Assembly (NCBI GenBank): GCA_035530395.1
Contig: DATKUX010000074.1
Span: 1 to 61,206 of the forward strand
DNA: 61,206 nt
Source: Spirochaetia bacterium
GTDB taxonomy: Bacteria; Bacillota; Desulfotomaculia; Desulfotomaculales; JAJYZD01
Direction of reading: 5' to 3'
Shown here: piece after piece, positions 7,345 to 48,496 of the stretch
Layout of the letters: the number at the start of each line of letters is the position of its first letter
Position numbering within the stretch: position 1 is the first letter of the stretch
Program-made: the position numbers and the translations under genes
The notes under the pieces: generated by a model
Told to the model about the DNA's origin: nothing
The model's input: the letters and a program-made list of their open reading frames with translations, nothing else
Databases searched by the model: none

Positions 7345-7384
7345 GTGAGATAGATCTAAAACAGCAGGCGGTGGTATCAGACCT

Positions 7385-21076: not shown

Positions 21077-21442
21077 ATGAAGGATAGCAGTTACACTATA
21101 AATTGCCTCAAGGATATTGTCAAGGTATTTTGCGAAGAAAGGGATTGGGACAAATTCCACAATCCTAAGGATTTGGCTATTGGTATTGTTACTGAAGCGT
21201 CCGAGGTGATAGAGCACTTTCGCTTCAAGTCGCTAGAAGAGATAGAAACAATGTTTAGTGATAAAGATAAAAAACAGGAGATTGCCGAAGAGCTAAGTGA
21301 TGTATTGTTTTTCGTGTTAAGATTTGCACAGATGTACAATATTGATTTAAGTGCTGAATTTCTTGCAAAGATCGAGAAAAATCAAGCAAGATACCCTGTT
21401 GTAAAATGTAAAGGGTCGAACAAAAAGTATACGGAGGCTTAA
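21077..21442 (+). CDS. MazG-like nucleoside triphosphate pyrophosphohydrolase (dCTPase/DCTPP1-like, all-alpha NTP-PPase)
   Basis: ERDWDKFHNPKDLAIGIVTEASEVIEHF...EELSDVLFFVLRFA...EKNQARYP matches the MazG/DCTPP1 EExxE/D core. RBS AAGGAG is present. AT-rich. Confidence 0.75.
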   Translation: MKDSSYTINCLKDIVKVFCEERDWDKFHNPKDLAIGIVTEASEVIEHFRFKSLEEIETMFSDKDKKQEIAEELSDVLFFVLRFAQMYNIDLSAEFLAKIEKNQARYPVVKCKGSNKKYTEA

Positions 21443-21447
21443 CTTTA

Positions 21448-23322: not shown

Positions 23323-23766
23323 GACGGGCGGAGATAGGATTGGATGGCTGATCAAGATAAGTGGTCAGTACTCTGAAGGCCCTATGAGATCACAAAATTA
23401 GGATTTGATAAGAGACTTATAGCTATCAATGATTCCGCTGCGAAAAGTACGATTTTCCCGAAGGACATCCCAAGTATAGTGGCGCGCATTCACCTGGACC
23501 CCTATAGGGGGTATCCGCCGCGTGAGCGAAGGGGTTTTCGCAGTAGAATCATCAATATTCCCCACTTGGTTTTTTGCGTTCAATAGCCTGGATATTAGAA
23601 TTTTGCTAGTAATAAGAGGTAAAAAATTATTGCCGGGGTCTCTGGGTTAAAAGGATAGATCCAGGAATCCTCCTCCTGGAGAGCGGTAGAGATGGTCTTC
23701 CCGGTTCATGTCAATCATGAAGAGAACTCTGGAACTAGCCAATGGCAAGGTTTCAAGGGTTCGGTT

Positions 23767-23898
23767 GTGGTCTGCATGTTGGTCTGCATGGGGGCCTATT
23801 TTTGGTCTGCCGATTGGTCTGCATAGTACCGGAAACCCGCAGAAACACAGGGTTCCTTGCGGAACCCTGTCTAGCCACTCCCTATGTATTTGGTCTGC
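23767..23898. repeat. five direct copies of a 9-bp motif (T/G)TGGTCTGC (GCAGACCAA on the tRNA strand)
   Basis: Copies at 23767-75, 23779-87, 23802-10, 23814-22 and 23890-98, plus hairpin CAGGGTTCC/GGAACCCTG at ~23849-23869. All lie immediately 3' of tRNA-Pro. Confidence 0.8.
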
Positions 23899-23945
23899 TA
23901 TGTAAATGTAAGAAGCCTTGATTCTCAAGGCTTCCCGGATTCGCT

Positions 23946-24023
23946 TGGTCGGGATGACAGGACTTGAACCTGCGACCTCACGGTCCCGAACCGTGCGCTC
24001 TAGCCAAACTGAGCTACATCCCG
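23946..24023 (-). tRNA. tRNA-Pro (anticodon CGG), CCA encoded
   Basis: Reverse complement CGGGATGTAGCTCAGTTTGGCTAGAGCGCACGGTTCGGGACCGTGAGGTCGCAGGTTCAAGTCCTGTCATCCCGACCA folds as a cloverleaf (7-bp acceptor, D, anticodon loop TTCGGGA, TPsiC GGTTCAAGT). A hairpin follows at ~23912-23934. Confidence 0.9.
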
Positions 24024-24887: not shown

Positions 24888-26111
24888 TCAACCGCCGGCA
24901 TAGTAGGCCAGTACCTTTTTGACGGCCTGGATGACAGCATCGACATCTTCTTCCTGCATAGCCGGATAGATCGGCAGGCTGATCAGGTTGGCGTAAGCCT
25001 CTTCGGTGTGGACGAAGGGGTTCTCCAGGGCACAGAACTCCGGGTGACCGATCCAGCGCTGATAGGGATGGCGAAATACGGGGAGGTAATGCACGTCGAG
25101 CGAGATGTTTTCCGCCCGGACGGCCTCAAAAATCTCCCGGCGGCCGGCCTTGAGGCGGGATGCAACCAGGCGTACCGGGTAGAGGTAATGGGCATCGCCG
25201 GTCGCCGGGGTCCGGGGGGGCAGGATCAGCGGCTCATCCCGGAAGGCTTCGTCGTAACGGGCGGCGATTGCACCCCGTCGGGACAGAAAATCGCCGGCCC
25301 GCTCCATCTGGCTGGCGCCCAGGGCCGCCTCCAAAGGACCGAGGCGATAGCTGAAGCCCAGGTCCTGCATTTCCCGGTGCCAGGGGCCTTCGTTCGCCAC
25401 CAGGCCGGCCGGGTCTTCCACTAGCCCGAGGTTGCGGAAAAGCCGCAGCCAGTCGGCCAGGTCGGCCCGGTCGGTTACCACCGCCCCGCCTTCCCCGGTG
25501 CAGACCCCCTGACGGTGATGAAAGCCGAGGCAGGAGATCTCGCCGAAGGAGCCGGCCGGGTGACCGTTATAGGTGGCTCCCAGAGCCTGGGTGGCGTCCT
25601 CGATCAGGGTCAGGTTGCGGCGGGCCGCCAGTTCGGCGATAGCATCCATATCACAGGGACGGCCGGCGTAGTGAAAAGCAATGACCGCCTTGCTGCGTTC
25701 GGTGAGGACCTGTTCGACCGCGGCCGGATCCATGGTAAGGGTCCGCGGGTCGACGTCGGCGAAGATGGGGACGGCCCCCATGTAGAGAACGGCGTTGGCG
25801 GCCGCCGGTGGAGCCAGGGGCGACAGCACGACCTCTTCCTGGGGTCCGATGGCGGCCGCGGCCAAGGCCAGATGCAGGGCGGCGGTCCCGCTGGCGACAG
25901 CTACCGCGTAGCGCCGGCCGGTGTAGGCGGCCAGTTTCTCCTCTAACATGTCCAGCCATGGCTGGACCACGAGATCTCCCTGCAGGGCCTGCTGCACCAT
26001 TGCTGTGTCCTTTACGTTGAGCGATGGACGGGCAAAAGGCAACAATTCGGGGCGGACCGGCCGGCCACCGGCTATAGCGGGCGTGGTGTCTCCTTGCGGC
26101 ATCACTGCCAT
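24888..26111 (-). CDS. DegT/DnrJ/EryC1/StrS-family PLP-dependent sugar aminotransferase
   Basis: Family-typical AVASGTAALHLAL, LIEDATQALGA and SFHHRQ regions. Confidence 0.8.
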   Translation of the reverse strand: MAVMPQGDTTPAIAGGRPVRPELLPFARPSLNVKDTAMVQQALQGDLVVQPWLDMLEEKLAAYTGRRYAVAVASGTAALHLALAAAAIGPQEEVVLSPLAPPAAANAVLYMGAVPIFADVDPRTLTMDPAAVEQVLTERSKAVIAFHYAGRPCDMDAIAELAARRNLTLIEDATQALGATYNGHPAGSFGEISCLGFHHRQGVCTGEGGAVVTDRADLADWLRLFRNLGLVEDPAGLVANEGPWHREMQDLGFSYRLGPLEAALGASQMERAGDFLSRRGAIAARYDEAFRDEPLILPPRTPATGDAHYLYPVRLVASRLKAGRREIFEAVRAENISLDVHYLPVFRHPYQRWIGHPEFCALENPFVHTEEAYANLISLPIYPAMQEEDVDAVIQAVKKVLAYYAGG

Positions 26112-33891: not shown

Positions 33892-33919
33892 ACACCTGCA
33901 GGCAAATCACCATAAGATA
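33892..33919 (+). promoter_or_regulatory. SigK-type promoter (AC-N17-CATAAGATA)
   Basis: AC at 33892-93, 17-nt spacer, CATAAGATA at 33911-19, followed by the conserved TTCTAGCCCA. Lies 87 nt upstream of ATG 34006. Confidence 0.5.
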
Positions 33920-34005
33920 TTCTAGCCCACGGGATGGGAGCGTTTAGCGATCCGTTCCGCGGGCTAGAATCACCGGAATTTCCCGAAAAGGAGGCGTACC
34001 TTGCC

Positions 34006-34482
34006 ATGACTACCCAAACCACCCTGCGCGTCAGACTGCCCGAGATATGTCTTCCAGACACGGTTTTCACGCCGGTGCCCCCAACGACAAGTTGTACTCC
34101 GCCGCCGGCAGGATCCACCGTCAGCTGCAACGTCAGCGGCGTGACCTGCACCGAGGTGTCCCGGACGAACAGCAGCACCGTCTCCGGCCTTCAGGACGTC
34201 AAGTTCCTGATCACGTTCACTCTCAACCTAAACATCATTAACCCTGCCGGCATAATCGTTTGCCAGACCAGTCAAACCTCGGAGTTTTTCCAGACCGTCA
34301 CACTCTACGCCCCGCCCTGGATACCGACGTTTTGCGTAGCCACCTTCGATTGCGGTCCCTGCATAGCGTTGGATGACACGACCTGCTGTTCCCTGGAAGT
34401 TTGCCTGACCGTCTGGACGTTCGTGCCGCAACGATCCGGAGGGCGACGTAACTCCTCTATGCGGCTTCTCCGGCAACTCTGA
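34006..34482 (+). CDS. cysteine-rich protein, divergent paralogue (E) of the 43-48 kb family
   Basis: AAGGAGG then ATG 34006. Shares VTCTEVSRT, F(L/F)ITFTLNLNIINPAG, EFFQTVTLYAP, FDCGPCIALDD and CCSLEVCL with copies A-D. Lacks their N-terminal PICIEVPQVLDFCFQ and C-terminal PPxCPP tail. Confidence 0.7.
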   Translation: MTTQTTLRVRLPEICLPDTVFTPVPPTTSCTPPPAGSTVSCNVSGVTCTEVSRTNSSTVSGLQDVKFLITFTLNLNIINPAGIIVCQTSQTSEFFQTVTLYAPPWIPTFCVATFDCGPCIALDDTTCCSLEVCLTVWTFVPQRSGGRRNSSMRLLRQL

Positions 34483-34595
34483 GCGTGGGGAGAGGACGCC
34501 TGCCGGCCGCTTCCCTGAAAAGCCCAGCCACCATCCGCGCCGTCCCTTCATATTATGCAGGAGATACAAGGTTAAACAACGGGCGGGGTGGCTTC

Positions 34596-36476
34596 ATGGG
34601 GGACAGAATCAGCCTCTGTATGATTGCGCGTAACGAGGAAGAGAACCTGGGGCGCTGCTTGGACAGCGCCGCCGGCTGTGTGGACGAGATCGTGCTGGTG
34701 GATACCGGCTCCGCGGACGCCACCGTGGAGGTTGCTAAAAGCTACGGGGCCAGGGTTCGGCAATCTCCCTGGCATGATGACTTTTCTATGGCCAGAAACC
34801 AGTCGCTGGCCGAGGCGGCGGGCGACTGGATCCTGGTCCTCGACGCCGACGAGGAATTGCCGCCGGAAGCGGTGCGTTTTTTGCGGGAGCAGGCGGGTCA
34901 GGAAGACACGGATGCCTGGACTTTCACCGTTGTGAGTAATGTGTCGACCGGTGAGGATCTATGTGCCACCCGGCACGCGGCCCTGCGCATGTTTCGCAAC
35001 CGGCCGGAGCACCGGTTCGAGGGTCTGGTGCACGAACAGGTGCGGCCCAGTATTTTGCGAAACAATCCCACCGCCGGCATCCGCCACGCCAACCTGGAGA
35101 TCCGGCACCACGGTTACGTGGTTGACGGTGGGGAAGCCGGGAACAAAACCGGGTACAAGATCCGCCTCCTGCAAAAAGCTCTGGCGGCCAAGCCCTTCGA
35201 TGCCTTCCAGAACTATAACCTGGGTGTCAGCTACCTGACGGCACGGGAACCGGAAAAGGCCCGTTCCCACTTTGAAATAGCCCATCTCGCTACGGACGCC
35301 CGATCCGGTTTTGCGCCGGCCCTCTACCGCAATTACGCCCTGTGCCTGTACGAACTGGGTGAGTTCACCGACTGTCTCAAGTTGCTGGACGAAGGCCTCG
35401 GCCATTTCCCCGCATACCCTGACCTCCACTTTCTGAAAGGCCGGCTTTTTTTTGAACTGGGACTGCTGGCCCAAGCCAGGGCGTGTTTGCAAGCCTGTAC
35501 AGGCTTTCGCCACGTTCCGCCCGAGTACCCTACCATGGAAGGTATCACCAGCTATCTAAGCGAGGAAAACCTGGCCGGGGTCGCACTAAAGGGAGACGAT
35601 CCAGACATGGCCCTAGAGCACCTGGGTGCCGCTTACAGCATGCGAAGATCCTACAGCGTGGCGCTCCGCCTGGCCCTGGTGCTGAAACAAAAGGGTCTTT
35701 CCCGTGCCGGGCTGCGGCAGGCCCTGACCGGGCGGTTTGACCTGGATGATCCGGCCATGGCCCGTCTCTTTTACGACCTCGGGGAATACGAGGCCTGTTT
35801 GGAGCACTTGGCCGGATCTGACGGCCAGCCCGCGTTTTCGTTACTCCGGGCCAGGTGTTTGACCCGCCTGGGACAGCCTGACGCCGCGCTTAAACTGTTG
35901 GATCAGTTGTCCGGGACCGGCGTTGATCCGGCGGAAGCGGAGCGGGAAGTATGGTTGGCCGGTTGGCTGAGGGGAGCGGAACAGGCCGCCCCGACGGAAG
36001 AAGCGGCAGATGAGGAAAACGCGGCGCTCATTGAAGAAGTGGCGTATGCCGCCTGGATCAGGGGCGAGCATGAACGGGCGCTGTCTCTGGCCGCCGCGGT
36101 GGCCGGGGAAAAGGCCCGCCTGAGGCTGGCCGGATATGCGCTGGGACATAATCAGCCCGTGGTGGTCGAGACTCTTCTGGCAGAAGAGGCACCCGGAGCA
36201 GCTGGCAGCTATTTAAAGGGCCAGGCCTGCGCCGAACGGGGGAGGCACCGGGAGGCTTTCCTCCATTATGTCGAAGCGGCTGGGGACAGGGGTAAAGAGA
36301 AAATGTGCTACTTACGGGCTCTGGAAGAAGTGATCATCCAGTGCCAGCTGATGGTGCTGCAACTCCTAAATGTCGAAGGACCAAACGGGGTACTCCAATT
36401 GGAGCTATTCCGGCTGGCTTCCCGGCAAAAAAAGCTTGGTCGGTATAAGGGGGAATCAACCGTTGACGCGTGGTAA
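34596..36476 (+). CDS. family-2 glycosyltransferase with C-terminal TPR-repeat region
   Basis: ISLCMIARNEEENLGRCL, VLVDTGSADAT, WHDDFSMARNQSL and ILVLDADEEL (GT2 DxD), followed by TPR-like helical repeats. Confidence 0.8.
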   Translation: MGDRISLCMIARNEEENLGRCLDSAAGCVDEIVLVDTGSADATVEVAKSYGARVRQSPWHDDFSMARNQSLAEAAGDWILVLDADEELPPEAVRFLREQAGQEDTDAWTFTVVSNVSTGEDLCATRHAALRMFRNRPEHRFEGLVHEQVRPSILRNNPTAGIRHANLEIRHHGYVVDGGEAGNKTGYKIRLLQKALAAKPFDAFQNYNLGVSYLTAREPEKARSHFEIAHLATDARSGFAPALYRNYALCLYELGEFTDCLKLLDEGLGHFPAYPDLHFLKGRLFFELGLLAQARACLQACTGFRHVPPEYPTMEGITSYLSEENLAGVALKGDDPDMALEHLGAAYSMRRSYSVALRLALVLKQKGLSRAGLRQALTGRFDLDDPAMARLFYDLGEYEACLEHLAGSDGQPAFSLLRARCLTRLGQPDAALKLLDQLSGTGVDPAEAEREVWLAGWLRGAEQAAPTEEAADEENAALIEEVAYAAWIRGEHERALSLAAAVAGEKARLRLAGYALGHNQPVVVETLLAEEAPGAAGSYLKGQACAERGRHREAFLHYVEAAGDRGKEKMCYLRALEEVIIQCQLMVLQLLNVEGPNGVLQLELFRLASRQKKLGRYKGESTVDAW

Positions 36477-38679
36477 ACTCAGTGTTTGCCTCATCGCCAA
36501 GAACGAATCCGTCAACATCGAGCGCTGTCTGAACAGCGTCAGGGAATGTGCGGACGAAATCGTGCTGGTGGACACGGGTTCCAGCGACGATACACCGGAA
36601 ATAGTGGAATCCATGGGCGCCAGGGTAATTCATACCCGCTGGACCGGCGATTTCAGCGTTGCCCGCAACCTCTCCCTGGAAGCCGCCACCGGCGACTGGA
36701 TCCTTTTTTTGGACTGTGATGAGGAGTTGTCCCCGGAAAGCCGCCAGGAACTTCAGGGCGTCCTGGACAATGACAACTATGAGGCTTATTTCGTCATAGT
36801 CGATAACATAACGGATAAAGGGCACGAACTAAGTGTCCCGAGTATAAGGCTTTTCAGAAACAGACCCTGCTTCCGGTTTAAAGGAAAGATCCACGAACAG
36901 ATCGTAAACTCGATCCTGGCCAACTATGGTCAGACCAGCTTAGGCCAAAGCGATATAGTAGTCCTCCACCATGGTTACCACCCCCATACGACCAACATCA
37001 GGGCCAAGATGAACCGCAACCTGGAAATATTGCTGACGTACGGCGAGGAGGAGAAAGACGGCTTCTTCTATTACAACCTGGGCACGGAATATTGGCGGTT
37101 GGGTCAAAGGGAGCAAGCCCTAGAGAACTACTCCCAGGCCCTGCAGTTGAGCAATCCCGCTCATAACTTTGGACCCATTCTGGTCAGAAGAACTATCAGC
37201 TTGCTGATGGAGCTCAACAGATACCGCTCGGCCATTGAACGGGCAAAGCATTACCAGACCCTGTTGCCCGACTACCATGACCTGGTATTCCTGGAGGGGG
37301 CCTGCCACTTGGCCTGCGGGCGGTATTCCCGCGCCGGGGCCCTCTTTAAACGCTACCTGAAGATGCCCCCGCCCCCGCGTGGATACCCCAAGGAACAGGG
37401 ATTCCACGGCTTCAGCCCCGAGACCATGCAGACCTGGGCCGCTGATCAGGCCCGGAAGGGGGCTGTGCCCAACCTGGCCGTCTGTATCGCCGGCGGCGGC
37501 ACAAAAGAAATGCTGGCCCGCTGCATCCGGAGCGTCCAGGAAATAGCCCGGGAGCTTATCTTCCTGGATCCAGGCTCCCCGCCAGGCTGTGGAGACGTCG
37601 CCTATCAGATGGGGGCCACGGTGGCAGCCCTGAAGCCGGGCCAAAGCCAAGACGCCGTTTGGGCGGAAGCTGCGGCCACGGCCACAACGAAGTGGGTCCT
37701 GGTGCTGTACTCCGACGAGGTGCTGGCCCCGGGGGGGCGTGAGGGCGTCAGCCGGATCATCAATAACCCTGAGCATCAGGGCTACCTGCTCAAACTACGC
37801 ACCTTTCTCGGCCCGGATATGTCCCAGGCGTCCTGCCATCTGAAAGGGGAAATGAGGCTCTTCCGGCGCTCCGGCAACCGGCCTCCTCCGCCGGGTCATG
37901 CCGGCATCGTCATTGACTGTCTGCGTTACACGTCCGCGGGGAAAGAACCAGCTCAAGCCGGTATGTCGGCCTACGACCATGCCCTGACGTGTTTCTACCG
38001 GCAAGACTTCCACGCGGCGGTCGCCGGTCTGGCCATGGTGAGTAGGGAGAATGCCCCTGGCCCCGCCTTCTTTTTCTTCTACGGGCTGTCTCTCATCAAT
38101 AGCGGGAACACTTCCGAGGCCCTGGCCGTACTGGAGGAGGGGGTGGCCGGGTACGGGGACTACACCGACCTGCGGTACCTGCGGGGTATAGCCCGCTTTC
38201 AACTGGGCGACGCCACTGCCGCGGAGCGCGACTTCGCCCGCTGTCTGGAAATGGGCGACGCTCCCTGGTTCAAGTACACGGTGAGCCCCGGAACCGGTAC
38301 GCACCGCTCCCTATGTTCCCTGGGCACCATTCTGGCCGAGCGTGGCGATACCCCCGGAGCTCTGGATCTTTTCCTCCGGGCGGCAAAAGTGGCGGACGGG
38401 TTCGAACCGGCCCTGGAAAGACTGGCCTTCCTGGTCGACCAATGGCCTCAGGCGCCCATGGCCTATTTAGAAAGCCGCGGCCTGCTCAACTCAGTGAGCC
38501 TGGGTATTTTGGCCGGCACCCTGGCCGGGAAGGGAAGATACCGGGAAAGCCTGGAGTACCTGTCCACGGCGGGCGAGCGCCTGGCTCAGGAACCCGTTCC
38601 CCGCAGCGTTGGGGCGTGGGTGCGGGCCATGGATCACCTGCTGGCCAACCTGAACCGGGAGGCCGGGACGGCCTTCTGA
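36463..38679 (+). CDS. family-2 glycosyltransferase - TPR - second degenerate GT-like module - TPR
   Basis: TTG 36463 after AAGGGGGAA, overlapping the upstream stop. LSVCLIAKNESVNIERCL, VLVDTGSSDDT and ILFLDCDEEL. An internal AVCIAGGG...FLDPGS...VLVLYSDEVL resembles a decayed second GT2 fold. Confidence 0.75.
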   Translation: MTRGKLSVCLIAKNESVNIERCLNSVRECADEIVLVDTGSSDDTPEIVESMGARVIHTRWTGDFSVARNLSLEAATGDWILFLDCDEELSPESRQELQGVLDNDNYEAYFVIVDNITDKGHELSVPSIRLFRNRPCFRFKGKIHEQIVNSILANYGQTSLGQSDIVVLHHGYHPHTTNIRAKMNRNLEILLTYGEEEKDGFFYYNLGTEYWRLGQREQALENYSQALQLSNPAHNFGPILVRRTISLLMELNRYRSAIERAKHYQTLLPDYHDLVFLEGACHLACGRYSRAGALFKRYLKMPPPPRGYPKEQGFHGFSPETMQTWAADQARKGAVPNLAVCIAGGGTKEMLARCIRSVQEIARELIFLDPGSPPGCGDVAYQMGATVAALKPGQSQDAVWAEAAATATTKWVLVLYSDEVLAPGGREGVSRIINNPEHQGYLLKLRTFLGPDMSQASCHLKGEMRLFRRSGNRPPPPGHAGIVIDCLRYTSAGKEPAQAGMSAYDHALTCFYRQDFHAAVAGLAMVSRENAPGPAFFFFYGLSLINSGNTSEALAVLEEGVAGYGDYTDLRYLRGIARFQLGDATAAERDFARCLEMGDAPWFKYTVSPGTGTHRSLCSLGTILAERGDTPGALDLFLRAAKVADGFEPALERLAFLVDQWPQAPMAYLESRGLLNSVSLGILAGTLAGKGRYRESLEYLSTAGERLAQEPVPRSVGAWVRAMDHLLANLNREAGTAF

Positions 38680-41528: not shown

Positions 41529-42665
41529 TCACCGCAGGGGCGAACCCGGCCCGCAAGAGTCGTTTTGCCCGTCTGACCGGTTGGATTCCGTTCCACCTCC
41601 TGTACCCGCGGCAGGAGCAGGCCTCCCCAGCTGAGGACGGTAAAACGGTTGGGCCTCCTGACGTTGCCCGGCGGTCGACGACGGCCGGGTGAAGGGTGCC
41701 ATGGACACCGGATAGGGGGAGGCCGGGTACTTAAAACCGGCTGCCGGAGCCCGGGGCAAAGTCGATGCAGGCGCATGCCGCCCGAACAGGGCGGGAGGGA
41801 GTCCCGGCTGGCGGGCCTGGAGATTCACCATGGCTGCCCTGGCCGTTTTCATCGCCGCCTGGTGGGAGCTTGTGGTCACCACCGGGTTGACCGGAGCGGA
41901 CGGAGGGGCCGGAGCGGAATCCTCTCCGAGGTTGAATACCGTTTTAGCGGCGGCGGTCAGCCGGGCTTCCGGGACAACCTGTTTGAGGCGCCGCCAAAAG
42001 ACCTGCACCGTCTCTTCCCGGCTGGTGTCACTTCCTCCTTCGGAACCGGTCCGCTCACCGCTGGAGAGACTGGTTCCCTCGCCGCTAAAATGGCGGGCCA
42101 GACCCTGCTTCAAGCCTGCGGCCCAGTGCTTAACCGCCCCGGGCGGCGCCGGCGGGCATTCAATCAGGACCGCAGGCATACTGGCCGGCAGCGGCCCACG
42201 GGGCGACTCCAGGAAAAGAACCTCCGTGCCGGGCGTCAACCGGACAGCCGAAGATAACTCCTCAGTCAGCAGGGACGCCAGGCGGGTACTGCCGTAATAC
42301 TTCCCGGGCACTATCACCAGGGGCGCGTGCTCTGCGCCGTCGGTCAGCCATAACAATAAATGGCCGCCCAGGGGCAGGGAAGCGCGATGACCGGCCAGAC
42401 GCACCAGGTTGACCCTGGCGGAGGCCGCCATCAGAAGTTCTTGCAGGGCGCCTCCCAGGCTAAGCGAAGTACCCTGTGCTTCGCTTTCCACGATCAAGGC
42501 TACTTGCCGGCCGGTGAAAGGGGAATTGACCAGCAGCACCCCTTCAGCGGAAGACCGGTGGAAGGACTGGCCCAGCTCTCTGGCAACCTGGGCAGCCTTT
42601 TCGATTTGCCCGGCCGGGAGGTGGCAGAGGCCGTCGAGTTCCCATACCACCAGTATTTCGTCCAC
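41529..42665 (-). CDS. hypothetical protein: Amidase_3-like fold apparently lacking zinc ligands + Pro/Ala-rich C-terminal region
   Basis: GTG 42665 after AGGTGA. MPAVLIECPP, YYGSTRLASLL and the LKQGLARHF layout recall N-acetylmuramoyl-L-alanine amidase (CwlD-type), but there is no DPGHGG/His-Glu motif. The tail is low complexity. Confidence 0.35.
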   Translation of the reverse strand: MDEILVVWELDGLCHLPAGQIEKAAQVARELGQSFHRSSAEGVLLVNSPFTGRQVALIVESEAQGTSLSLGGALQELLMAASARVNLVRLAGHRASLPLGGHLLLWLTDGAEHAPLVIVPGKYYGSTRLASLLTEELSSAVRLTPGTEVLFLESPRGPLPASMPAVLIECPPAPPGAVKHWAAGLKQGLARHFSGEGTSLSSGERTGSEGGSDTSREETVQVFWRRLKQVVPEARLTAAAKTVFNLGEDSAPAPPSAPVNPVVTTSSHQAAMKTARAAMVNLQARQPGLPPALFGRHAPASTLPRAPAAGFKYPASPYPVSMAPFTRPSSTAGQRQEAQPFYRPQLGRPAPAAGTGGGTESNRSDGQNDSCGPGSPLR

Positions 42666-42693
42666 AATAATCACCTGCCTGTTCAAGCTGCTA

Positions 42694-42721
42694 TATTCTA
42701 CGCTGGCCGATCGCCTGTTGT
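42694..42721 (-). promoter_or_regulatory. near-consensus SigK-type promoter (AC-N17-CGTAGAATA, one mismatch)
   Basis: Reverse strand: AC (rc of 42720-21), 17-nt spacer, CGTAGAATA (rc of 42694-42702). Lies ~29 nt upstream of GTG 42665. Confidence 0.35.
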
Positions 42722-43009
42722 GCGCCTGGCAACCCGTTAAAACGCCTCTCAAAGCGGGGCATGCGAAACCTGGGGTGCCTTATCCGGCAGAATTTTCGAT
42801 TAAGGGTTAGCTTGACCGAACAAACACAAAGGACGAATTCCTTAGCTGGGGTGTTTAATTTATTTTTGGTATCATTTGCCATACGAGGCAACACTTGTTT
42901 TGACTTTAAGGCCCATACAGGTATACGTTACCAGTTTCGTCATTGTATTCCTTTCCACGGTACTGGGCCCTTTTTTATCTCAGATACCGAAAATTTTACT
43001 GCCGGTTTC

Positions 43010-43037
43010 ACCAAGATAAGGCAATACACATAGAATA
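43010..43037 (+). promoter_or_regulatory. SigK-type promoter (AC-N17-CATAGAATA)
   Basis: AC 43010-11, 17-nt spacer, CATAGAATA 43029-37, then TTCTAGCCCA. Lies 78 nt upstream of ATG 43115. Confidence 0.55.
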
Positions 43038-43114
43038 TTCTAGCCCAGCGGGATTGAAAATATCGAGCTGGTAACAGCTGAAGCGATAGCTGATTAGAGG
43101 AGGTAAAGTTAATC

Positions 43115-43675
43115 ATGCCTGACCCCATTTGCATTGAAGTACCCCAGGTATTAGACTTTTGTTTCCAGACGGAGTCCCAGGACGTGTGTCTCCCTCTCGC
43201 GGCGTTTACCCTCGTGGTACCTACGCTTCTTACTTGCACGGGCAATACCGCTGCCTGCACCCTGACCAGCATAAGCTGTACCGAGGTGTCCCGGACCGCC
43301 ACTACCACCAGCGGTTTCTTTGACGTCACGTTCCTGGTTTCGTACTCGCTCACCATCAATATCGTGAACTCGGCCGGCGTCGTTATCGCCCACTCCACCA
43401 ATACCGCCAGCTTCTTTAAGACCGTCGTCCTCTGCGCGCCTGATGGAGCCATCACGGCTTGCGATATCACCTTCAGCTGCGGCCCCTGCATTTGCATCGA
43501 CGACGTTGTGTGCTGTTCCTTCAACCTGTGCATTGTCATCAAGTCTATATTCCCGGTGGTTCTTTCGGTGGTCGGCACCGTCCTCACCCCGACGCTGTGC
43601 GTCATGCCGAGCCCCTTCCCGCCGGTCTGTCCGCCCATGGTTCCGACCATCTGCAACAACTGCCCGCCGGTGTAG
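43115..43675 (+). CDS. cysteine-rich protein, copy A (186 aa, 18 Cys)
   Basis: RBS AGAGGAGGTAAAG, 7 nt before the ATG. No signal peptide. N-terminal PICIEVPQVLDFCFQ, core ISCTEVSRT...FFDVTFLVSYSLTINIVNSAG, C-terminal CGPCICIDDVVCCSFNLC...TPTLCVMPSPFPPVCPP...CNNCPP. Confidence 0.8.
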   Translation: MPDPICIEVPQVLDFCFQTESQDVCLPLAAFTLVVPTLLTCTGNTAACTLTSISCTEVSRTATTTSGFFDVTFLVSYSLTINIVNSAGVVIAHSTNTASFFKTVVLCAPDGAITACDITFSCGPCICIDDVVCCSFNLCIVIKSIFPVVLSVVGTVLTPTLCVMPSPFPPVCPPMVPTICNNCPPV

Positions 43676-43695
43676 GTTTAATCCGGGGAGGGACA

Positions 43696-43720
43696 GCAGG
43701 CTGCTCACGGGGCAGCCTGC
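43696..43720 (+). promoter_or_regulatory. intercistronic GC stem-loop (GCAGGCTGC/GCAGCCTGC), no U-tract
   Basis: Conserved in position and sequence after all four copies (A-D). Confidence 0.55.
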
Positions 43721-43780
43721 CCCGCTTTCCGGCATGTAGAACCGGCAAGTATGCCTGCATGGATACAGTACTGGATAAAA

Positions 43781-43892
43781 ATGCTTAAGCCTGTCTGGAC
43801 GGGAGGTCCGGGGAAGGGCTCCGGCAGTCGCCATACCCGGCGTAAAGAAAGTTATAATCGCCTGCCCAGGTCGGGCGGAAGTGCAATACGAC
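43781..43892 (+). pseudogene. decayed remnant of the first HMA-like gene, truncated at the tandem-duplication junction
   Basis: ATGCTTAA... aligns to 44577 onward with a ~27-nt deletion (frameshift). It ends at ...GTGCAATACGAC and is joined directly to the AGAGGAGGTAAAGTTAATC RBS of copy B. Confidence 0.7.
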
Positions 43893-43911
43893 AGAGGAGG
43901 TAAAGTTAATC

Positions 43912-44472
43912 ATGCCTGACCAGATTTGCATTGAAGTACCCCAGGTATTAGACTTTTGTTTCCAGACGGAGTCCCAGGACGTGTGTCTCCCTCTCGCGGC
44001 GTTTACCCTCGTGGTGCCGACGCTTCTTACTTGCACCGGCCACACAGCTTCCTGCACGCTGACCAGCATAAGCTGCACCGAGGTATCTCGGACCGCCACC
44101 ACCACCGCCGGTTTCTTTGACGTCACGTTCCTGGTTTCGTACTCGCTCACCATCAATATCGTGAACTCGGCCGGCGTCGTTATCGCCCACTCCACCAATA
44201 CCGCCAGCTTCTTTAAGACCGTCGTCCTCTGCGCGCCTGACGGAGCCAGCACGGCTTGCGATATCACCTTCAGCTGCGGCCCCTGCATTTGCATCGACGA
44301 CGTGGTGTGCTGTTCCTTCAACCTGTGCATTGTCATCAAGTCCATATTCCCGGTGGTTCTTTCGGTTAGCGGCACCGTTCTCACCCCGACGCTGTGCGTC
44401 ATGCCGAGCCCCTTCCCGCCGGTCTGTCCGCCCATGGTTCCGACCATCTGCAACAACTGCCCGCCGGTATAG
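43912..44472 (+). CDS. cysteine-rich protein, copy B (186 aa; 6 substitutions relative to A)
   Basis: Same RBS and architecture as copy A. No promoter of its own, because of the duplication junction. Confidence 0.8.
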   Translation: MPDQICIEVPQVLDFCFQTESQDVCLPLAAFTLVVPTLLTCTGHTASCTLTSISCTEVSRTATTTAGFFDVTFLVSYSLTINIVNSAGVVIAHSTNTASFFKTVVLCAPDGASTACDITFSCGPCICIDDVVCCSFNLCIVIKSIFPVVLSVSGTVLTPTLCVMPSPFPPVCPPMVPTICNNCPPV

Positions 44473-44492
44473 GGCTTAACCGGGGAGGTAGA

Positions 44493-44517
44493 GCAGGCTA
44501 CGCGCTGAGCAGCCTGC
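44493..44517 (+). promoter_or_regulatory. intercistronic GC stem-loop
   Basis: GCAGGCT / AGCCTGC arms, homologous to 43696-43720. Confidence 0.45.
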
Positions 44518-44576
44518 CCCGCTTTCCGGTGTGCTCATCCGGCGATTATGCCTTTAGGAGGTAGTGCTGGATAAAA

Positions 44577-44789
44577 ATGCTTAACACTGTAGCGATCAAT
44601 GTCACCCAGCCCCTGGACGGGAGGACCGGGGAAAGACTCCGGCAGTCGCTCGTTGCCCTGCCCGGCGTAAAGAAAGTAACAATCGCCTACCCAAGCAGGG
44701 TGGAAGTGCAGTACGACGCGGCCGAGACGCGGGCCGGCAGTCTTATGACGGTCATACGGGCTCACGGTTTAAGAACCGGCTTAAAGTGA
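44577..44789 (+). CDS. small HMA-fold (ferredoxin-like beta-alpha-beta-beta-alpha-beta) protein lacking the CxxC metal site, type 1
   Basis: MLNTVAINVTQPLDGRTGERLRQSLVALPGVKKVTIAYPSRVEVQYDAAE...LMTVIRAHGL aligns position by position with the CopZ-type pattern (V.GM.C..C....L..L.GV..V.V......V.V.(F/Y)D......I...I...G), with GMxCxxC replaced by QPLDGRTG. Confidence 0.65.
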   Translation: MLNTVAINVTQPLDGRTGERLRQSLVALPGVKKVTIAYPSRVEVQYDAAETRAGSLMTVIRAHGLRTGLK

Positions 44790-44893
44790 TGCCAGAATAA
44801 GTAGGGGCGGTCGCCTCTATTAAAGCGTCCCCGTGGCAGCAGGACGGGTGGCCCGGTGCTGATCGGGGATACATGGCGAGGGGAGTGACCCAG

Positions 44894-45118
44894 GTGCCCA
44901 CCACGGTTACACTCAAGACAGGGCTGTGGCTCGGCCGGGAGGAAGCGGCCGAGTTAAAGAGCAAACTGGCCAAGCTCAGGTATGTCCTCCAGGTGGATGT
45001 GCCCTTTCCCGACCGGGTGGTAATAACCTACGAAAACGGCAGGTTGGGATTATCCACACTGAAGGCCGCCATCGCCAGCCGGACCGCTGTTCCTGACGTC
45101 AGGGTAACGCGGCGGTGA
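44894..45118 (+). CDS. small HMA-fold-like protein lacking CxxC, type 2
   Basis: GTG 44894 after GAGGGGAG. VPTTVTLKTGLWLGREEAAELKSKLAKLRYVLQVDVPFPDRVVITYENGRLGLSTLKAAI shows the same beta-alpha-beta-beta-alpha pattern. Confidence 0.55.
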   Translation: MPTTVTLKTGLWLGREEAAELKSKLAKLRYVLQVDVPFPDRVVITYENGRLGLSTLKAAIASRTAVPDVRVTRR

Positions 45119-45161
45119 GGAGGACGCAAATAGGGGGGCCGGCGGCCTCCCGGGAATTCCG

Positions 45162-45187
45162 GACCGGCTTTGCGCCGGTCTTTTTTT
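45162..45187 (+). terminator. rho-independent terminator of module B
   Basis: GACCGGC-TTTGC-GCCGGTC followed by T7. Confidence 0.8.
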
Positions 45188-45305
45188 GTTCCTCCGGCCC
45201 GGACGCAGCCGCCGGTTTCACCGGAAAGCCCTGGACGGTAACCTGGTCCACTGTTGCTGACTATCCTATATTATCCGAGACTGGATAAACTTTCCGCAAT
45301 CGTGC

Positions 45306-45333
45306 ACCAGTAAAAGGAAATATACATAAAATA
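45306..45333 (+). promoter_or_regulatory. SigK-type promoter (AC-N17-CATAAAATA)
   Basis: AC 45306-07, 17-nt spacer, CATAAAATA 45325-33, then TTCTAGCCAG. Lies 78 nt upstream of ATG 45411. Confidence 0.5.
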
Positions 45334-45410
45334 TTCTAGCCAGGGGGGAAGGCCTTCAGCAAGCCAGCCCCGATCGGCGGCATCGTAACATGAGGAGGTA
45401 AACAAAAATC

Positions 45411-45995
45411 ATGGCTAATCCCATTTGCATCGAAGTTCCCCAGGTATTAGACTTCTGTTTCCAGGCGGAGACAACGGACATTTGTCTCCCGGTCTTCGGG
45501 TTCGTGCCCATTGCCCCCGCGCTGACCTGCACTTGTGCGACGGGCAACACGGTCGCGTGCAGCGTCGTCGCCGTCAGCTGCACCGAGATCGTTCCGGCAC
45601 CCGGCCGGGTCCCCAGCACCACACCCGGATTCTTTAACGTTACCTTCGCGATTTCCTTCTCCCTCGCCATCACCCTTGTTAGCCCGACCGGCGTCGCTAC
45701 CTGCGCCACCTTCGTGACCTCCAGCCCCTTCACGAAGACCGTCGTGCTGTGCGCACCCGACGGGGCGATCACGGTTTGCGAGGTTACCCCGGCCTGCGGT
45801 CTCGGGATCTGTATCGACGACGTGGTCTGTGTTTCGGTTAACCTGTGTCTGGTTTTCAAATCGGTATTTCCAGTGGTCCTGTCCGTGATCGGCACCGTCC
45901 TCACCCCGACGCTGTGCGTCATGCCGAGCCCCTTCCCGCCGATCTGCCCGCCCCTGCCGCCGACGATCTGTGCTCCCTGCTCGTTGTTGACGTAA
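45411..45995 (+). CDS. cysteine-rich protein, copy C (194 aa, most divergent of the tandem set)
   Basis: RBS GAGGAGGTAAAC. Conserved PICIEVPQVLDFCFQ, KTVVLCAPDGAIT, ICIDDVVC and TPTLCVMPSPFPPICPP. The middle of the protein is diverged. Confidence 0.8.
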   Translation: MANPICIEVPQVLDFCFQAETTDICLPVFGFVPIAPALTCTCATGNTVACSVVAVSCTEIVPAPGRVPSTTPGFFNVTFAISFSLAITLVSPTGVATCATFVTSSPFTKTVVLCAPDGAITVCEVTPACGLGICIDDVVCVSVNLCLVFKSVFPVVLSVIGTVLTPTLCVMPSPFPPICPPLPPTICAPCSLLT

Positions 45996-46004
45996 AGCAG
46001 GGAA

Positions 46005-46039
46005 GCAGAGCAGGCTGCTCCCGGAGCAGCCTGCTCTGC
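46005..46039 (+). promoter_or_regulatory. intercistronic perfect ~15-bp GC stem-loop
   Basis: GCAGAGCAGGCTGCT / AGCAGCCTGCTCTGC. Confidence 0.55.
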
Positions 46040-46092
46040 TCCGCGGCACGAAAATCCGGCAATTATGCCCGTAGGAGGTAGTAGGGATAAAG

Positions 46093-46299
46093 ATGCTTAG
46101 CAAGATAACGGTCAATACCACTGCGGCCCTGCATGGAAAGTCTGGAGAAAGGCTCCGGCGGTCGATCATGACGATGCCGGGCGTGCAGCAGGTAACCATT
46201 ACCTACCCGAAACAGGTGGAAGTGCACTTCGACGGTAGCGAGACGGGGGCCGGCCACCTTATTACGGCCATACGGGCCCTCAGTATGAGGACCGTCTGA
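46093..46299 (+). CDS. HMA-fold protein lacking CxxC, type 1 (module C)
   Basis: MLSKITVNTTAALHGKSGERLRRSIMTMPGVQQVTITYPKQVEVHFD... is a paralogue of 44577-44789. Confidence 0.6.
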   Translation: MLSKITVNTTAALHGKSGERLRRSIMTMPGVQQVTITYPKQVEVHFDGSETGAGHLITAIRALSMRTV

Positions 46300-46408
46300 A
46301 CATGATGCTGGAACAAATAGGGGTCGCTGCCCCTATTTGTTTGCCGGCACGAAAACGAGGAAAGGTCACAGGTACCGATTTCGAACATCGACAGGAGGGA
46401 GTGTGACG

Positions 46409-46630
46409 GTGCCCGTCATCGTCACACTCAAAACCAGTCTATGGCCCGGCGCGGAGGAAGGAGATAACTTTATGGGCATAGTGGTGAGAATTAAGGGCGT
46501 CACCCCGGTTGGGGTACTGCGTCCCGGTCGAATGACCGTATCCTTCGACAACGCTAGGATGGGCTTCTCGCCCCTGGGAAGGGTAGTGAGACGCGGGGTA
46601 GGAACAGGCGCCAATGTACAGCGGAAATGA
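46409..46630 (+). CDS. HMA-fold-like protein lacking CxxC, type 2 (module C)
   Basis: GTG 46409, 8 nt after AGGAGGGA. VPVIVTLKTSLWPGAEEG... is a paralogue of 44894-45118. Confidence 0.5.
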   Translation: MPVIVTLKTSLWPGAEEGDNFMGIVVRIKGVTPVGVLRPGRMTVSFDNARMGFSPLGRVVRRGVGTGANVQRK

Positions 46631-46669
46631 GGAGGACGCAAATAGGGGGCCGGCGGCCCCCGGGATACC

Positions 46670-46699
46670 GGACCGGCTTTAGGCCGGTCCTTTCTTTTT
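46670..46699 (+). terminator. rho-independent terminator of module C
   Basis: GGACCGGC-TTTAG-GCCGGTCC followed by TTTCTTTTT. Confidence 0.8.
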
Positions 46700-47023
46700 G
46701 GCCGCACAACCTGCCGGTTCGCGCTCCTATATCTTACCCGGAAGGATGCCTCTTTGGCATTGGCACCGCAGGGACAAGCTGACCGGCGTTGATCCATAGA
46801 ATATTGCGCTGTAGTCCCGACTAATTACTCCAAATCCAGAATCGTGCCTATTGATTGTGATCCTATGTTTAAACCAGGTAGTCCTAGTAAACGGTATTAT
46901 AGACAATAAATGTTAGTATGCCGGGAAACCCCAACCAAAAGACGGAGCGGCATCTATTTTTTGTTAAAACGCGGAATATGCCTCCCTAAAGCAGAAAACT
47001 TTGTGCCGGTTTCACCAATATAA

Positions 47024-47051
47024 GGCAATACACATAGGATATTTCAGCCCA
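47024..47051 (+). promoter_or_regulatory. SigK-type promoter (AC-N17-CATAGGATA)
   Basis: AC 47024-25, 17-nt spacer, CATAGGATA 47043-51. The surrounding GCCGGTTTCACCAAnATAAGGCAATACACATAG is conserved with the copy-A promoter. Confidence 0.55.
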
Positions 47052-47121
47052 CTGGAGTTGGAGCTTTAATCGAACCGGCAATGACCGGCTTAGTCACTCA
47101 AAAGAGGAGGTAAAGTTTACC

Positions 47122-47691
47122 ATGCATCATGACTCAACCATTTGCATTGAGGTGCCCCAGGTATTAGACTTTTGTTTCCAGACGGAGCAACAGGATGTAT
47201 GTCTCCCTCTCTCGGCGTTTACGCCGACAGTAGCCGGAGTGGCTTGTAGCTGCACCAACAGCACGGCCAGCTGCACGCTGACCACCATCAGCTGCACCGA
47301 GGTGTCCCGTACCGCGAGCACCACCGCCGGTTTCTTTGACGTTACGTTCCTGGTTTCGTACTCGCTCACTATCAATATCGTAAACTCGGCCGGGATCGTT
47401 ACTTGCACTTCCACCAACAGCGCAAGCTTCTTCAAAACCGTCATCCTCTGCGCACCCGACGGCGCCAGCACGGCATGTGACCTCACCTTCAGCTGCGGTC
47501 CCTGCATTTGTATCGACGACGTGGTCTGCTGTTCCTTCAACCTGTGTCTGGTCCTCAAGTCTATATTCCCCGTAGTTTTGTCCGTGACCGGCACCGTCCT
47601 TACCCCGACCCTGTGCGTAACGCCGAGTCCGTTCCCGCCCATCTGTCCGCCCGTAGTCCCGACGCTCTGCAACAACTGCCCGCCGATGTAA
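47122..47691 (+). CDS. cysteine-rich protein, copy D (189 aa)
   Basis: RBS AGAGGAGGTAAAG. Same architecture and motifs as A and B, with about 85% identity by eye. Confidence 0.8.
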   Translation: MHHDSTICIEVPQVLDFCFQTEQQDVCLPLSAFTPTVAGVACSCTNSTASCTLTTISCTEVSRTASTTAGFFDVTFLVSYSLTINIVNSAGIVTCTSTNSASFFKTVILCAPDGASTACDLTFSCGPCICIDDVVCCSFNLCLVLKSIFPVVLSVTGTVLTPTLCVTPSPFPPICPPVVPTLCNNCPPM

Positions 47692-47702
47692 AAGTCAATC
47701 GA

Positions 47703-47737
47703 GGGAGGGCAGGCTGCCTACGGGGCAGCCTGCTCCC
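47703..47737 (+). promoter_or_regulatory. intercistronic GC stem-loop
   Basis: GGGAGGGCAGGCTGCC / GGCAGCCTGCTCCC. Confidence 0.55.
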
Positions 47738-47795
47738 TTAGCTAAGACCAATCCGGCGATAATGGCCGGACGGAGGGAGGTAGAACCGGACTAAA

Positions 47796-48005
47796 ATGCT
47801 AACCAGGATAGCGGTTAACGTCAAGCCGGCCATGGACAGGAGGACCGGTCAACGACTCCGGCAGTTGCTCGTGGCTATGCCGGGTGTCAAGCAGGTAACC
47901 ATCGCCTACCCGAACCGGGTGGAAGTGCAATATGACGAAGCGGAGGCCAGTGCCAGCGGCTTTTTGACGGTCATTCGAACTCACGGCTTAAGAACCGGTT
48001 TATAA
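47796..48005 (+). CDS. HMA-fold protein lacking CxxC, type 1 (module D)
   Basis: MLTRIAVNVKPAMDRRTGQRLRQLLVAMPGVKQVTIAYPNRVEVQYDEAE... Confidence 0.6.
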   Translation: MLTRIAVNVKPAMDRRTGQRLRQLLVAMPGVKQVTIAYPNRVEVQYDEAEASASGFLTVIRTHGLRTGL

Positions 48006-48105
48006 CTGGCCTGGACAGACAGGGGGTTGCCCCTGTCTGTTTGTCGTGAGCAGGGGCGAAAGGGCCGGTGCCGGTTTGCGGACAACATTGAAGGGAGTGG
48101 GAAAA

Positions 48106-48327
48106 GTGCCTACCATGGTTACACTCAAAACGGGCCTTTTTTTGAGCCCGGAAGAAGGGGATAAGTTAAAGAGCAGGCTCACCAGGTTCAAGGGCGTCAA
48201 CCGCGTTGACGTGTTGTATCCGGACCGCCTGCTCATAACCTACGACAGCCCCAGGGTAACTTTGTCGACCCTCAAGGCGGCAGTGAACGCCAAGGAACCA
48301 AAAAGCATCAGTGTAAACCGGAAATGA
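48106..48327 (+). CDS. HMA-fold-like protein lacking CxxC, type 2 (module D)
   Basis: GTG 48106 after [68 protein letters not shown]. Confidence 0.55.
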
Positions 48328-48371
48328 GGGGGACGCAAATAGGGGGGACCGGGGGTCCCGCCGTAGTGAAA

Positions 48372-48400
48372 AGACCGGCGTTGCACCGGTCTTTTCTTTG
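48372..48400 (+). terminator. rho-independent terminator of module D
   Basis: AGACCGG-CGTTGCA-CCGGTCT followed by TTTCTTTG. Confidence 0.75.
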
Positions 48401-48496
48401 TGCGCTTTTTCTCAAATTCATCTTCACCTTGGGACATGCCCGTGGTATAATGTCTATATAGGAAAAAAAGAACTATCGGTAGGGAGGGATGTTTCT

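Follow-up and report, generated by a model that had tools for sequence, protein, structure and literature searches.

The window analyzed here is positions 1 to 61,206 of contig DATKUX010000074.1 (assembly GCA_035530395.1), which carries the label Spirochaetia bacterium and is placed by GTDB in the Desulfotomaculia. Between positions 42990 and 48400, it holds tandemly amplified genes that probably encode cysteine-rich structural proteins of the outer spore envelope, in a layer resembling an outer coat or exosporium. These proteins appear to be made in the mother cell, to form a divergent clade of the BMQ_0737 family, and to be accompanied by small HMA-like partners that would act without metal. 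The cysteine-rich family is already catalogued in NCBIfam, with one member studied, and the window adds a divergent, amplified clade rather than a new kind of protein. The new part of the finding is apparently the HMA-like partner cassette, which is conserved across genera; a literature search found no description of an HMA-type partner associated with a spore coat or of a Pelotomaculum exosporium. Anaerobic Peptococcaceae and Desulfotomaculia include syntrophs and sulfate reducers of the subsurface. The outer layers of their spores appear to be molecularly uncharacterized, and the locus ties these layers to a family with one studied Bacillus member.

Cysteine-rich proteins and the BMQ_0737 family

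Four paralogous forward-strand coding sequences, A to D, lie where the first-pass annotation of this DNA had placed them, and the open reading frame (ORF) listing gives them 186, 186, 194, and 189 amino acids. Their composition is as biased as had been described: cysteine makes up 9.3 to 10.6% of the residues (18, 18, 18, and 20 Cys), T, V, S, and P together account for 44 to 46%, and there are 12 to 14 charged residues per protein. Aromatic residues had been called very few, which is true of Trp (none) and Tyr (0 or 1) but not of Phe, of which each protein has 12 or 13. A is 97% identical to B, 82% to D, and 64% to C. Alignment recovers both conserved ends, an N-terminal motif, ICIEVPQVLDFCFQ, and a Cys/Pro-rich C terminus, and the very strong ribosome-binding site (RBS) reported before these genes is also found (GAGGAGGTAAA). 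Among 34 close family members, some 17 Cys positions vary little or not at all. The N termini contain no signal-peptide-like sequence. The first-pass annotation had seen no transmembrane segment in these proteins; residues ∼131 to 157 reach a 19-residue Kyte-Doolittle mean of 2.1 to 2.3, and an AlphaFold2 (AF2) model shows a long β-strand there; the counterpart in relatives, VKLLVPSFGFC, includes Lys and Pro.

The same annotation had not recognized the family and had proposed a candidate undescribed assembly system. The family does have a name, that of the NCBIfam model NF052457, "BMQ_0737 family morphogenetic spore coat protein," for which the curated cutoff is 71 bits per whole protein. Experimental work exists on one member. 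Copy C is the sole copy among A to D that matches the model directly (E = 3e-8, 34 bits), with residues 5 to 181 aligned to model positions 1 to 195 of 199. A large-database search returned 32 close relatives, all unnamed, from metagenome-assembled genomes (MAGs) of Peptococcaceae, Pelotomaculum, and Ammonifex; when the four window copies were aligned with 30 relatives, 21 of the 34 sequences matched NF052457, the best with an E value of 1e-17. When 1.84 billion representatives were searched with a profile of the family, 208 clusters (clustered at 50% identity) matched at E ≤ 1e-3, showing that the BMQ_0737-type family is widespread, with no Pfam model of its own. Among these wider relatives, 57 of 77 sampled match NF052457, and six matches of the profile search pass its cutoff at 107 to 247 bits. 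One passing cluster includes a Priestia filamentosa protein that NCBI itself names as a BMQ_0737 family morphogenetic spore coat protein. Profile searches started from broader alignments yielded little beyond the close clade.

Direct comparison of the window-clade alignment with bona fide members by hhalign gave a probability of 99.15% and an E value of 3.9e-19 over 181 columns, positions 1 to 195 of the former aligning with 1 to 231 of the latter. The two groups share three motifs: CI-V-KVYD near the N terminus, a central LCAP-G-T, and a C-terminal C-P...CP...PPQC. By sequence, the window proteins are thus distant homologues of BMQ_0737 at the superfamily level, outside the curated equivalog threshold. 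A BMQ_0737-GFP fusion is found in the outermost spore layers of Bacillus megaterium together with outer-coat and exosporium proteins, where it is accessible to antibodies (PMC4656864). The title of Manetsberger 2014, as cited in that paper, gives BMQ_0737 a structural and integrity role in the outer spore layers. The P. filamentosa gene sits among spoVIF and cotO. Homology now replaces the analogy on which a place in the outer spore layers had originally been proposed, and a SigK-type promoter motif is kept upstream of homologues.

The B. subtilis SigK consensus is AC-N16-18-CATANNNTA. The window has five matches to a strict form of it, AC-N17-CATANNNTA, where 0.64 would be expected, and four of the five stand directly upstream of family genes, namely A, C, D, and a fifth paralogue, E, which is described below. 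The sequence that follows the −10 element of promoter E (ATTCTAGCC) matches promoters A and C. The pattern scan found no match directly before copy B; the claim that every module has its own SigK-type promoter was thus right for A, C, and D (43010, 45306, and 47014) but not for B, which stands behind a decayed small-gene remnant. Within 260 nucleotides upstream of the family genes in homologous GTDB loci, the strict motif is present in 13 of 45 (background, 1.2%) and a relaxed motif, AC-N16-18-CATANNNT[AG], in 32 of 45 (background, 3.7%; binomial 7e-36). We read these as candidate promoters of a mother-cell sporulation sigma factor, most likely SigK.

Pfam scans assigned no family to the window copies, to 77 relatives, or, at E ≤ 10, to 8 members of the Bacillus type, DUF3992, CotZ, and DUF3794 being absent throughout, and PDB sequence searches with a single sequence and with the family profile gave chance matches only. 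The AF2 model, built on a 34-sequence alignment (pLDDT, 81.4; pTM, 0.70), is confidently all-β. Its strands, some as long as 23 residues, are unusually long, and confidence is low only in the Pro/Cys tail. Foldseek searches of this model against BFVD returned nothing meaningful (TM score of ≤0.25). An Ena-like or other solved fold was rejected for the Cys-rich protein, as neither PDB nor BFVD gave a Foldseek match, and the relation to Ena/DUF3992, CotY/CotZ, or CdeC that the first-pass annotation had raised by analogy was likewise undetectable by Pfam or by Foldseek against PDB.

These results also bear on the idea that A to D are subunits of Ena- or pilus-type appendages or fibers rather than of a coat or exosporium sheet. 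The presence of multiple paralogues, the all-β prediction, Cys-rich termini that might act as covalent connectors, and a model with no fold match would all suit a fiber. On the other hand, Pfam gives no DUF3992/Ena match even at E values of ≤1 to 10, Foldseek finds nothing among PDB chains at E < 0.2, and BMQ_0737 forms a shell around the spore (PMC4656864), so that we regard a fiber as very unlikely.

A BMQ_0737-type domain was also seen in larger proteins of ∼500 to 1,000 amino acids (P0041, P0062, P0106, P0118, P0153, P0173, and P0178), mostly at or near the C terminus and, in P0153, at the N terminus. The repeats fused to it look by eye like FG-GAP, NHL, or β-propeller repeats, and P0153 has a weak β-helix match in Pfam. 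In such proteins, the domain may anchor other modules to the spore surface.

HMA-like partners and their linkage to the Cys-rich genes

Modules B, C, and D each encode two small proteins, of type 1 and type 2. The two types are paralogous, and their alignment is collinear. Both had been described as HMA-fold proteins that lack the metal-binding cysteines, and structure prediction bears this out. An AF2 model (pLDDT, 83.9) has the β-α-β-β-α-β order, and all of its top 25 Foldseek matches are copper, mercury, or zinc HMA domains, the best being 6ff1, 2l3m, 1osd, 2aw0, and 2qif (TM scores of 0.86 to 0.89, root mean square deviations of 1.1 to 1.8 Å); CsoZ, CopZ, and MerP are matched at TM scores of 0.85 to 0.89. 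In Pfam, five of the six small ORFs score 12.3 to 21.1 bits against HMA (PF00403; E values of 4e-4 to 0.2), under the 24.8-bit gathering score, and C2 (46337-46630) has no match in that scan. None of the six contains Cys, and the loop that would hold the metal reads, e.g., QPLDGRTGE or GLWLGREEA, with GLQNSEKAK in relatives. Of 27 HMA-like sequences, 19 are devoid of Cys, the canonical GMxCxxC loop is free of it in every one, and His is scarce.

These counts bear on the idea of a thiol-rich metal-binding layer, in which the Cys-rich proteins would sequester or buffer Cu, Zn, Fe, or other metals at the surface of the spore, with the HMA-like proteins as degenerate metallochaperones still able to transfer or sense metal. 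Such a layer would account for the fold of the partner, for the CC, CxC, and CGPC motifs of the Cys-rich proteins, and for the best sub-threshold NCBIfam matches of the small proteins, which are metal-binding families such as CopZ, CsoZ, and UxxU. A metal role is nonetheless unlikely because the ligands are missing at the HMA-like metal site. In addition, the conserved Cys residues of the large proteins fall mostly in modeled β-strands and in the Pro-rich tail, which would suit a structural rather than a metallothionein-type use, and the only characterized homologue has, by the title mentioned above, a structural role.

To survey linkage, an iterated hidden Markov model (HMM) was run over all ORFs of 47 GTDB loci, 46 of which are titled as Bacillota lineages (Pelotomaculum, Desulfotomaculaceae, Ammonifex, Thermaerobacter, Symbiobacteriaceae, and others); only L049, a MAG, bears another label, "uncultured Pseudomonadota." An HMA-like gene was found in 17 of the 47, always starting a few tens of bases past the stop codon of a Cys-rich gene, or in 18 if a weak match ∼900 bp downstream in L051 is included, and the HMM found none elsewhere in these loci. 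Among the carriers are Pelotomaculum propionicicum, P. terephthalicicum, Ammonifex, and several Desulfotomaculaceae. Additional loci carry the gene as well: those of P. thermopropionicum SI (L001 to L003), the closest relative (L056), and a metagenome contig (L057). Adjacency of Cys-rich and HMA-like genes therefore recurs beyond this genome; the linkage of three gene types held for the Cys-rich gene and one HMA-like gene but not for two HMA-like genes, a layout limited to the closest relatives, with one or none elsewhere. Downstream of Cys-rich genes in loci with no HMA-like gene, we found no alternative conserved neighbor.

On a neighbor-joining tree, HMA-linked genes all fall within one of two main clades, and some paralogues inside that clade have no partner, which implies losses. 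L056 has three modules and the same CAP ... adk-methyltransferase-PNP synteny as the window. In L057 (positions 2796 to 8213), the gene pair lies in a context unrelated to that of the window, near a Cas12f1-like_TNB Pfam match and a phage-integrase fragment, suggesting that the pair moves as a cassette and is mobile in evolutionary terms. A strong hairpin between the two genes was read by eye in the folds of 11 of 15 linked loci, and 9 of the 15 reach z scores of ≤ −2; the hairpin sequences are unrelated between loci.

The charges of the two proteins are complementary: a net charge of −4 to −14 is typical of the Cys-rich proteins, nearly all of which are acidic, and most HMA-like proteins are basic, at +2 to +8. 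One way to read this is that the HMA-like proteins are themselves minor structural parts of the envelope, such as a cap, a linker, or a surface-decorating subunit, and not chaperones. Cotranscription and conserved adjacency would agree with this, as would the fit of a basic protein to an acidic scaffold and the retention of two diverged types side by side in the closest relatives. The sequences fit a chaperone equally well, and the lower expression suggested by the hairpin fits either role; we treat a structural part as a tentative possibility.

For the spore-envelope reading, we propose the following course of events. The SigK-type promoters, whose motif and conservation are observed and whose activity is presumed, would drive transcription in the mother cell at a late stage of sporulation. 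Because the Cys-rich proteins have no signal-peptide-like N terminus, the mother-cell cytoplasm would be the side from which they are deposited on the forespore; they would probably self-assemble and become cross-linked by disulfides, by analogy with CotY/ExsY and CsxA/CsxC. In the clade that comprises Pelotomaculum, Desulfotomaculaceae, Ammonifex, and this organism, a strong hairpin comes after each structural gene, and one or two genes for small, basic, CxxC-less HMA-fold proteins come next. The hairpin might lower or stabilize transcript levels such that the structural protein exceeds its partner. The HMA-like protein may bind the acidic Cys-rich protein by protein-protein contact, not through metal, and could serve as an assembly chaperone or adaptor or as a minor stoichiometric component.

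Several points weigh against this reading. The window proteins are well below the NF052457 cutoff (34 versus 71 bits); A and D have no match to the model at E ≤ 1, and B fails at E ≤ 0.01. The sole studied member of the family comes from a distant Bacillus. A Foldseek search of PDB with the Cys-rich AF2 model gave nothing below an E value of 0.2 (best, 0.2), and no assembly mode is readable from it. The sigma factor is assigned by consensus only, and the −10 element of SigE is similar to that of SigK. Disulfide formation in the mother cell of a strict anaerobe is not a given. Finally, the role of the HMA-like partner is pure inference, and its gene is absent from 29 of the 47 related loci, so the whole family does not need it.

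A bolder extension of the spore-envelope reading is that the CxxC-less HMA-fold proteins are a new class of dedicated assembly factors, each binding its cognate acidic, Cys/Pro-rich protein in the mother-cell cytoplasm and either keeping it soluble or un-cross-linked up to its arrival at the forespore surface or capping the growing lattice, and that the BMQ_0737 fold, which would have no solved relative, builds a new type of disulfide-locked lattice. We consider this combination speculative and rather doubtful. If the partner is an assembly factor, it would be a new component in the emerging picture of Cys-rich proteins that crystallize and become cross-linked as they build spore envelopes, and the pair would be tractable for in vitro assembly studies.

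Locus architecture and genomic surroundings

Table 1. Positions of the cysteine-rich gene modules and related elements
Feature	Coordinates	Strand	Basis
SigK-type match upstream of paralogue E (ACACCTGCAGGCAAATCACCATAAGATA)	33892-33919	+	pattern scan
Paralogue E, fifth and divergent copy, 182 amino acids as listed, actual start possibly later	33934-34482	+	
SigK-type promoter, module A/B (AC-N17-CATAGAATA)	43010-43037	+	pattern scan
Cys-rich protein A, 186 amino acids, 18 Cys, BMQ_0737 superfamily	43115-43675	+	
GC-rich hairpin 3' of A, −35.5 kcal/mol, z −4.9, U-tract not clear	43683-43732	+	fold
Pseudogene remnant of HMA-like gene 1 in A-B spacer	43781-43892	+	HMM (E = 3e-10), alignment
Cys-rich protein B, 186 amino acids, 18 Cys, no promoter of its own	43912-44472	+	
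Hairpin 3' of B, −31.3 kcal/mol, z −2.0	44479-44530	+	fold
HMA-like B1, type 1, 70 amino acids, 0 Cys, net charge +4	44577-44789	+	
B1-B2 hairpin, short local stem	44800-44821	+	fold
HMA-like B2, type 2, 74 amino acids from GTG after GAGGGGAG, basic C-terminal tail	44894-45118	+	
Rho-independent terminator, module A/B	45161-45190 (tool-called 45161-45181)	+	
SigK-type promoter, module C (AC-N17-CATAAAATA)	45306-45333	+	pattern scan
Cys-rich protein C, 194 amino acids, 18 Cys	45411-45995	+	
Hairpin 3' of C, −41.1 kcal/mol, z −5.0	45997-46047	+	fold
HMA-like C1, type 1, 68 amino acids	46093-46299	+	
C1-C2 hairpin, −27.4 kcal/mol, z −5.4	46306-46349	+	fold
HMA-like C2, type 2, 73 amino acids from GTG, most divergent type-2 copy	46409-46630 (ORF as listed 46337-46630)	+	
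Rho-independent terminator, module C	46670-46700 (tool-called 46670-46690)	+	
SigK-type promoter, module D (AC-N17-CATAGGATA)	47014-47041	+	pattern scan
Cys-rich protein D, 189 amino acids, 20 Cys	47122-47691	+	
Hairpin 3' of D, −33 kcal/mol, z −4.5	47702-47739	+	fold
HMA-like D1, type 1, 69 amino acids	47796-48005	+	
D1-D2 hairpin, −25.9 kcal/mol, z −4.9	48013-48042	+	fold
HMA-like D2, type 2, 73 amino acids from GTG	48106-48327	+	
Terminator-like stem (∼48368-48396) and U-rich tail, module D, followed by adk	48368-48405	+	read from fold; no call by terminator scan
P. thermopropionicum SI Cys-rich gene	AP009389.1, ∼1,364,067-1,364,645		

In modules B, C, and D, the Cys-rich gene is followed by a hairpin, a type-1 ORF (68 to 70 amino acids), a second hairpin, a type-2 ORF (73 to 74 amino acids), and a terminator, which is the order first reported; in B, the second hairpin is merely a short local stem. 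Two of the three terminators were called by the tool, and that of module D was read from the fold. Type-2 ORFs start with GTG and have their own RBS. The hairpins 3' of the Cys-rich genes reach −31 to −41 kcal/mol, with z scores of −4.5 to −5.0 for A, C, and D and −2.0 for B; that between the small genes is significant in C and D, and the whole region in B has a z score of +0.5.

The 236 bp that separate A from B can be aligned to the beginning of the small gene of module B, with deletions of 22 and 7 nucleotides, and the remnant ends where the RBS of B begins, i.e., it is truncated and fused to that RBS. As judged from this alignment, the spacer derives from small gene 1 by decay, and the partner of A is a pseudogene. 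A and B therefore form one transcription unit that arose by a recent duplication, to which their 97% identity also points. Recent duplication and decay account for variation in gene number.

At the stop codon of small gene 2, all three modules have an overlapping conserved element, TGAGGAGGACGCAAATAGGGGGG (45113-45160, 46625-46669, and 48322-48367), which is followed by an extra GC hairpin and then by the terminator. An Rfam scan of 42.5 to 48.6 kb gave only sub-threshold chance matches, and the element belongs to no RNA family known there; its conservation may be simply a trace of the duplications.

Four copies at 42990 to 48400 had been reported, and all four are there, but the family has another member in the window, paralogue E, that lies outside this interval. 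It has 11 Cys, is 32 to 36% identical to A to D, has neither the N-terminal CIEVP motif nor the Pro/Cys tail, and matches NF052457 at an E value of 9e-5 (22.7 bits). By eye, it resembles P0069, a family match from another source (E = 3e-23 to the window-family profile); for that reason, E is probably a real subtype and not a wreck.

Paralogue E opens an operon with two GT2-TPR glycosyltransferases (34485-38679), directly downstream of it, whose closest NCBIfam match is the SunS family of S-glycosyltransferases (58 and 100 bits, far short of the cutoff of 350). GT2-TPR and CAP/YkwD-like genes upstream of the cluster are syntenic in relatives, the former in L004 to L006. Their position raises the idea that the Cys-rich proteins might be glycosylated, possibly on Cys. 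The SunS similarity would suit a quite different reading, in which A to D would be secreted or modified Cys-rich peptide-like products with no link to spores, for example, antimicrobial substrates of the SunS-like enzymes. The proteins are, however, ∼190 amino acids long, with a confident globular β model and no leader or signal peptide; they are homologous to a spore-coat family and preceded by a conserved sporulation-type promoter motif; and the GTDB loci are almost all titled Bacillota. Bacillota lineages such as Pelotomaculum and Desulfotomaculaceae are endospore formers. A non-spore product is, in our estimate, extremely improbable.

The two CAP-domain proteins (PF00188; 39501-40178 and 40480-41394) resemble the sporulation-linked YkwD (TIGR02909, 94 to 99 bits against a cutoff of 171), and a CAP gene adjoins the Cys-rich gene in P. 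thermopropionicum (L001 to L003), the M0Z41 MAG (L004 to L006), and L056. Between them and module A, a 407-amino-acid protein with a Pro/Ala-rich C-terminal half is encoded on the reverse strand (41529-42752) and has no Pfam or NCBIfam match; a counterpart is kept immediately upstream, in divergent orientation, in L004 to L006 (376 to 398 amino acids) and L056 (378 amino acids). A sugar aminotransferase similar to PseC/LegC (24888-26111, reverse strand; TIGR03588, E = 2e-98, below cutoff) belongs to a gene block that extends to ∼29600 and may supply unusual sugars for surface glycosylation.

Farther away, an island at ∼20000 to 24000 has a GC content of 0.41 to 0.45, against ∼0.60 elsewhere, and encodes a Schlafen-group-3-like helicase (21448-23322; PF09848, E = 8e-87) that looks like a horizontally acquired defense-type gene. 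The fifth match to the strict SigK pattern (20049) lies at the edge of this island and may be due to chance. An RND efflux pair at 2912 to 7344, composed of a periplasmic adaptor (TIGR01730, 254 bits) and a 1,040-amino-acid permease, is unrelated to the Cys-rich cluster.

Comparison with known systems

The closest known system is BMQ_0737 itself, with which the window proteins share collinear homology over the full length, a size of ∼190 to 240 amino acids, and an N terminus with no signal-peptide-like sequence. They differ from it in sequence (∼23% identity, with the window copies under the cutoff), in Cys content (18 to 20, versus 10 to 15 in four bona fide Bacillaceae members), in the absence of the ∼40-residue insertion and the Trp (YDW) that Bacillus members carry, and in the amplification of the gene to four to five copies. 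In the one Bacillaceae locus examined, that of P. filamentosa (L054/L055), no small gene is called downstream; the HMA-like profile was not run there.

CsxA, CsxC, and CdeC, Cys-rich proteins with SPOCS/DUF3794 domains, are argued in a September 2026 preprint to build crystalline, disulfide-locked layers of Clostridium spores (10.64898/2026.09.03.749163). Like these proteins of C. sporogenes (CsxA/CsxC) and other species, including CsA/CsB of C. sordellii, the window family is Cys-rich and β-rich and is proposed to self-assemble and to be cross-linked by disulfides, and several paralogues with different roles per genome are a further likeness to CsxA, CsxC, and CdeC. UniRef also gives one BMQ_0737-family protein the label "DUF3794 domain-containing." The window family differs in that no member scanned matches DUF3794 (PF12673) in Pfam. 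A search of PDB for a SPOCS structure, made with a CotE sequence, gave no match, and Foldseek returned no SPOCS entry. The words "HMA" and "heavy-metal" never occur in that preprint.

With CotY, CotZ, and ExsY of the Bacillus crust and exosporium basal layer, the likeness is one of behavior: those proteins are mother-cell-made, Cys-rich, self-assembling, and disulfide stabilized, and they have a different fold (10.64898/2026.09.03.749163). The window family shows no sequence or profile similarity to them and no match to the CotZ family in Pfam. Ena1 and Ena2 (DUF3992) are likewise surface proteins of spores with Cys at their termini and several paralogues, whereas the window family has neither a DUF3992 match nor a structural match in PDB.

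The small partners have the same fold and size (∼70 amino acids) as CopZ, CsoZ, MerP, and the metal-binding domains of P-type ATPases. They differ in being basic, in lacking GMxCxxC, and in scoring below the Pfam gathering threshold (21.1 bits at best, versus 24.8), and their genomic partner is a spore-coat gene, not a Cu or Hg transporter. In this conserved two-gene cassette, the fold of a metal chaperone appears to have been reused without its metal site.

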